A stretch of 64,000 bases of DNA from Rhynchobatus australiae (taxonomy: Eukaryota), in contig JAUZTB010000011.1 in the NCBI GenBank assembly GCA_034780895.1, positions 50,021,798 through 50,085,797 of the forward strand. The letters run 5' to 3'. The position numbers and the translations under genes were made by a program. Below, one piece after another: positions 9,990 through 10,145 of this stretch; the stretch's first letter is position 1; every line of letters starts with the position of its first letter. The notes under the pieces are model-generated. The model worked only from the letters and a program-made list of their open reading frames with translations, did no database searches and was not told where the DNA came from.

Positions 9990-10145
9990 CTTATATAGTC
10001 TGTAATAATGAACAGCCACATCATCCAGCTGGACAGCTTCCTTGACATATTTGAGATGTGCTTCTGAGGCTGTAAGTGCATACTGGTCCTTGTGCATATT
10101 TGGAATGTGTTTCAAAATATATTCCTTCCCTCGCTTGGTAACCAC
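9990..10145 (-). CDS. FRMD6: Single FRMD6 (Willin) FERM-domain coding exon, antisense to YAP1 and with no neighbouring exons seen
   Basis: Minus strand reads ttacag|GTG GTT ACC AAG...CTA TAT AAG|gtaagg. 156 nt, phase 0/0. Translates [52 protein letters not shown], nearly identical to the vertebrate FRMD6 FERM segment as I recall it and closer to FRMD6 than to FRMD1. Confidence 0.9.

Follow-up and report, generated by a model that had tools for sequence, protein, structure and literature searches.

We propose that the FRMD6 exon found beside YAP1 in the assembly of Rhynchobatus australiae is an ordinary exon of that gene which, together with the rest of a 2.1-kb block at 8734-10825, was very probably put there by a short-read assembly error. 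A previous reading, made from the sequence alone, had described this exon as lying antisense inside the YAP1 locus and had offered three explanations: a misplaced piece, a duplicated genomic fragment, or a true nested arrangement of two Hippo genes. It is the misplaced piece that our comparison supports, through a contig from another species (record 10 of run X2) that joins the two flanks of the block with 105 letters between them. Positions are those of the window, the whole stretch of 64,000 nt that was analysed, and its genes are:

9990-10145, reverse strand: FRMD6 coding exon, phase 0/0, amino acids 179-230 (last part of the FERM central lobe)
40866-40984, forward strand: YAP1 exon, end of WW1 and linker, 39/39 amino acids identical to Pristis (sawfish) YAP1
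58953-59066, forward strand: YAP1 exon, WW2, 37/37 amino acids identical to Pristis YAP1; Pfam WW, E = 3.5e-13

Identity of the FRMD6 exon

FRMD6 (Willin) is described in the excerpts of two papers as an Expanded-related FERM protein and an upstream regulator of the Hippo pathway (PMC8616527, PMC3620498). The exon at 9990-10145 comprises 156 nt on the reverse strand, is free of stops in phase 0/0, and has TTACAG as its acceptor and GTAAGG as its donor. Its translation is identical to amino acids 179-230 of the FRMD6 of the stingray Hemitrygon akajei (52/52, E = 1.2e-24), and the claim of an intact FRMD6 exon with AG and GTAAGG splice sites is thus borne out. In a comparison with 16 FRMD6 proteins, Mobula hypostoma was likewise identical over this segment (52/52), eight other chondrichthyans shared 49-51 of the 52 residues, and six amniotes shared 46-47. 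All of the gene-named matches among the 120 listed (of 237) are FRMD6 or FRMD6-like, the others being hypothetical or unnamed proteins, and judging by its best matches the exon belongs to FRMD6 and not to a paralogue. Pfam FERM_M was matched at positions 66-112 (E = 6.6e-05), the score of 23.7 bits falling just short of the cut-off (23.8). A search of the PDB returned no FRMD6 structure and only two designed TPR proteins at E = 0.2.

The boundaries of the exon are also those of other vertebrates. Among 39 short ORFs, mostly unnamed and from other genomes, 20 span exactly amino acids 179-230, 32 start at amino acid 179 and 24 end at amino acid 230. Ten of the first 14 read as Q, the 52 amino acids and V, i.e. 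the CAG of the acceptor and the GT of the donor are read through. On these alignments, the exon is an ordinary and genuine FRMD6 exon of a ray, with conserved boundaries and no biological import beyond that.

The exon differs from the FRMD6 of sheep, dog and rabbit at five residues (T/S, E/D, Y/F, V/I, Q/R), which represent the usual divergence between a ray and a mammal. These are the substitutions that the sequence-only reading had given for human FRMD6, and our comparison, made with sheep, dog and rabbit, agrees with them. The same reading had left a choice between a selected exon and a very recent copy. Complete identity to stingray FRMD6 marks it as the selected, orthologous exon, as opposed to a drifting copy.

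The window holds one FRMD6 exon only, as had been stated: a tblastn search of the 64 kb with five chondrichthyan FRMD6 proteins detected no second exon, the next best hit having an E value of 1.7. Presumably, another scaffold carries the remainder of the gene. As a side observation, Rhincodon FRMD6 is divided into two models on one record (P0139 and P0144, of 387 and 269 amino acids), and Rhinoraja has a second FRMD6-like model (P0007) on a 20.9-kb contig; both are probably splits of assembly or annotation.

Position relative to YAP1

The two YAP1 exons of the window, which we take to be exons 3 and 4 in human numbering, are the only ones present; exons for the N-terminal ~165 amino acids are not in the window. 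The identity of the two exons to sawfish YAP1 suggests that the organism is a batoid. With the upstream YAP1 exons missing from it, the window does not show that the FRMD6 exon lies inside YAP1, and the earlier description of the exon as being within the locus is not confirmed. The distance of about 31 kb upstream of the WW1-linker exon was correct (30,720 nt measured to 40866-40984), and this interval contains two 100-N gaps without flank overlap (at 10826 and 27899). Upstream of the exon at 40866, isoform X3 of Pristis YAP1 (P0122) differs in its N-terminus; its alternative first exon, which could have anchored the flanks in the YAP1 intron, had no match in the window (best E = 0.46).

In all six batoids for which both genes are listed, FRMD6 and YAP1 are on chromosome-size records of different length, as follows (FRMD6 vs YAP1, in Mb):

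Hemitrygon: 210.7 vs 203.0
Narcine: 376.2 vs 216.9
Rhinoraja: 62.1 vs 78.5
Leucoraja: 70.8 vs 88.0
Amblyraja: 75.3 vs 104.9
Mobula hypostoma: 256.4 vs 189.7

We take the different record lengths to mean different chromosomes, on the assumption that each species is represented by a single assembly. Pristis, Hypanus and Mobula birostris, for which only YAP1 is listed, were left out of this count; for Pristis, FRMD6 is absent among the 15 cluster members listed of 23.

Joining of the flanks without the block in a relative

Our evidence on placement consists of Logan contigs of public sequencing runs, which show presence and not absence. Thirteen runs contained part of 5300-10800, of which four (X1, X2, X5 and X6, from four organisms and four studies) were compared over 4500-15500, and the other nine, X4 (another sample of organism A) among them, were set aside. 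X1 agrees with the window without a single differing letter in 8/8 listed pieces, and two of its pieces end exactly at the edges of gaps in the window (10825 and 12060); X1 is thus probably the source run of the assembly and not independent of it. The features that bear on placement are the following:

4756-8754, no strand: left flank, with which relatives are colinear as far as 8322 and again from 8481 (X2 records 9 and 10, X5 record 16, X6 records 21 and 22)
8734-8754, no strand: probable chimeric junction with a 21-nt overlap, where X2 record 10 leaves the window (at 8754) and X1 record 3 joins it (at 8734)
8734-10825, no strand: block that does not belong with its flanks, made up of the exon and FRMD6 intron sequence (X1 records 3-5, X2 records 10-12, X5 record 17, X6 record 23)
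9197-9290, no strand: piece of a short high-copy repeat at which the contigs of all four runs break
10826-10925, no strand: 100-N gap without flank overlap, at the right end of the block and 680 nt from the exon
10926-15500, no strand: right flank, which relatives follow in the same order through the gaps at 12061 and 14207 (X6 record 24, X5 record 20)

Record 10 of X2 (1790 nt), from another species, covers 8481-8754 and 10926-12026 and does not include the exon. The spacing between 8754 and 10926 is 105 letters in this contig, known by length alone, against 2171 in the window. In addition, record 18 of X5 and record 24 of X6 begin 470 and 482 letters to the left of 10926, and their depths (14.3 and 16.9, respectively) recur at 8565, 164 letters from the contig end. 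From this matching depth we infer that X5 and X6 also bridge 8754-10926, with 116 and 128 letters, the left pieces themselves not being among those listed. The left flank at 4756-8754 is therefore likely the true neighbour of 10926 onward.

In X5 and X6, the exon appears to lie elsewhere. Record 17 of X5 and record 23 of X6 contain it on 9271-10693 and then run on for 1887 and 1931 further letters, with no piece among those listed on 10926 onward; bin depths suggest that a little of this continuation lies on 10739-10825. The other three gaps in 4500-15500 (at 5232, 12061 and 14207), taken as controls, are all bridged colinearly by relatives (173 vs 171 letters at 12061, and 0 letters between at 14207). 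The assignment of 8755-9222 to the same piece as the exon is indirect, since no contig passes unbroken through the repeat at 9197-9290, which X2 records 11 and 12 enter from opposite sides.

Among the X1 contigs listed, none bridges 8754-10926, and the 15 joints listed, out of a set with 973 more, do not include this bridge. By bin arithmetic, X1 has no contig over 10926-11046 (2.86 expected and observed), a hole that would fit a dip in coverage but proves nothing. We also considered, and dropped, the idea that the whole window to the left of 10826 might be an FRMD6 scaffold joined at the gap, as X2 record 10 links 8481-8754 to 10926.

Junction and proposed mechanism

At the left end of the block, record 3 of X1 matches the window exactly over 8734-9222 and is preceded by 42 letters, known by length alone, that do not fit it. 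X1 record 3 and X2 record 10 thus leave the window on opposite sides of a common word, as two sequences fused into a chimera would, the 21-nt overlap being measured from the alignment ends of two species. X1 probably does not contain both forms, since a fork should have broken record 3, which is unbroken at the junction. The X1 bin at 8537-8903 has a depth of 21 as compared to about 7, an excess that suggests short repeats, and the two loci may therefore be joined by a repeat instead of a chance word.

A comparable error has been described for transcripts. In the excerpts of PMC6736328, SPAdes begins at k=21 and hands edges on to larger k, and a word common to the covered ends of two sequences can leave one chimeric edge once the true branches have been trimmed (Fig. 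5b); an iterative k scheme is likewise described in those of PMC7299287. The likeness to our case is that unrelated sequences share a short word; the difference is that those were transcripts and ours is low-coverage genomic DNA, put together by what we presume to be an assembler of this type. Under a uniform model and an assumed genome of 2-4 Gb, about 2-7 million positions would have a chance 21-mer twin, and the junction 21-mer alone would have 0.004-0.06 extra copies. At a word depth of about 7x, fusions through chance 21-mers are to be expected.

The observed bridge, the 42 letters and the overlap would then likely have arisen in the following way. Two loci on different chromosomes would share a 21-mer by chance, and at low coverage both true continuations would be short dead ends, clipped as tips in what was presumably a k=21 graph. 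The clipping would fuse the left flank to the 2.1-kb FRMD6 piece, and a subsequent scaffolding step would set the true right flank behind the block with an unsized gap of 100 N. In the ray itself, splicing would join the exon to its neighbours in a normal FRMD6 gene elsewhere.

If so, the chimeric join likely lies inside a gap-free contig, at about 8734-8754, and errors in this assembly are not confined to its N gaps. The FRMD6 gene model of the assembly would probably lack the exon for amino acids 179-230, and lone foreign exons elsewhere in this low-coverage assembly deserve the same scrutiny.

Alternative explanations

One alternative is a real, lineage-specific duplication of an FRMD6 fragment between 8754 and 10926, maybe heterozygous, which would have left a silent, unprocessed pseudo-exon. 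We regard this as improbable, and give equally low odds to a recent antisense copy of the 2.1-kb FRMD6-exon fragment into a YAP1 intron, by way of 21-nt microhomology, in this ray lineage. Absence of the block in relatives would also be expected of a young insertion, and at about 7x the words across the junction could be lost if the insertion were heterozygous. In addition, the exon bins of X2, X5 and X6 are deeper than their listed contigs, an unexplained excess (e.g. 8.51 vs 7.2 and 12.8 vs 10.0). The X1 data, however, give contig depths of 7.40 for the block and 7.02 for the flanks, a ratio of 1.05 where a duplication would give 1.5 or 2, with the caveat that summed contig depth is a poor guide to copy number; on this ratio, the earlier option of a duplicated fragment is not supported. 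The X1 bins over the exon are accounted for by the listed contigs alone (7.91/7.91 and 7.69/7.69), with no second contig at 85% likeness, and X1 record 3 passes without a fork from its 42 unplaced letters into 8734. Furthermore, the block stops exactly at a contig end and a gap, and no target-site duplication was found around it (best local scores of 14 and 16). A true insertion would be a curiosity, in that it would physically link two genes of the Hippo pathway which other rays have unlinked, placing the exon of a Hippo activator inside the transcription unit of the pathway's effector and possibly in antisense or chimeric transcripts.

Much less credible again is a true nested antisense arrangement, in which FRMD6 would be transcribed through a YAP1 intron and the exon spliced to exons outside the window. 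Nested antisense intronic genes have all of their exons, or an interleaved set, within DNA that is continuous with the host gene. The likeness of our exon to these is superficial, being that of an opposite-strand exon between or before host exons, whereas here neither a full exon set nor continuous DNA was found. The exon and its splice sites are intact, and other exons could hide behind long introns; however, neither the 10 kb on one side nor the 54 kb on the other contains a further FRMD6 exon, and the two genes are on different records in all six batoids. Continuity of the DNA fails on both sides, at the junction (X2 record 10, X1 record 3) and at the N gap on the right, and the upstream intron of the exon continues elsewhere in two relatives. 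Our search of the literature found no report of FRMD6 nested within YAP1, nor of FRMD6 in elasmobranchs. With no further exon in 64 kb and flanks that join without the block, the nested arrangement offered earlier is not sustained.

Contamination with DNA of another species or sample would also explain a block that does not belong between its flanks, and is just as far-fetched, given that X1 has block and flanks at equal depth with 0 differences, that the GC of the block is unremarkable, and that divergence from relatives is of similar order in the block and the flanks (2.1-3.2% vs 2.3-4.0% in X2, 6.2% vs 5.8-8.2% in X5, 5.9% vs 4.0-9.2% in X6), which marks the block as the organism's own DNA.

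Other features of the window

The window contains 13 N gaps, six of which are of exactly 100 N and, by convention, presumably unsized. Three of the six have duplicated flanks of 22-35 nt (594-693, 14207-14306 and 50532-50631, with repeats of 35, 25 and 22 nt, respectively) and three do not (at 10826, 27899 and 57173). The gap at 14207 is false and its flank falsely doubled, since 14200 and 14326 are adjacent in a relative's contig, with 0 letters separating them. The gaps at 27899-27998 and 57173-57272 resemble the one beside the block, and chimeric ends of the same kind may be hidden in the contigs that precede them. The gap at 57173 is flanked by YAP1 exons that are in the correct order and on the correct strand.

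Very high-copy short repeats, presumably SINE-like, are present at 4748-4827, 8322-8395, 9197-9290 and about 12924-13300. Their summed depth in X1 is 28,000-215,000, and contigs are broken at them in each of the four runs. An imperfect palindrome of 84 nt at 22667-22750 is 81% self-complementary and has no Rfam match, the Rfam scan having returned 0 matches. Pfam matched none of 20 other selected long ORFs of the window (0/20). Decayed ORF pieces occur at 25789-26835, 27999-28543, 49674-49935 and 54732-55019, those scanned having no Pfam match at E = 0.01. We take them to resemble remnants of LINE reverse transcriptases, and two of the stretches, 26503-26771 and 49674-49935, are 67.5% alike.
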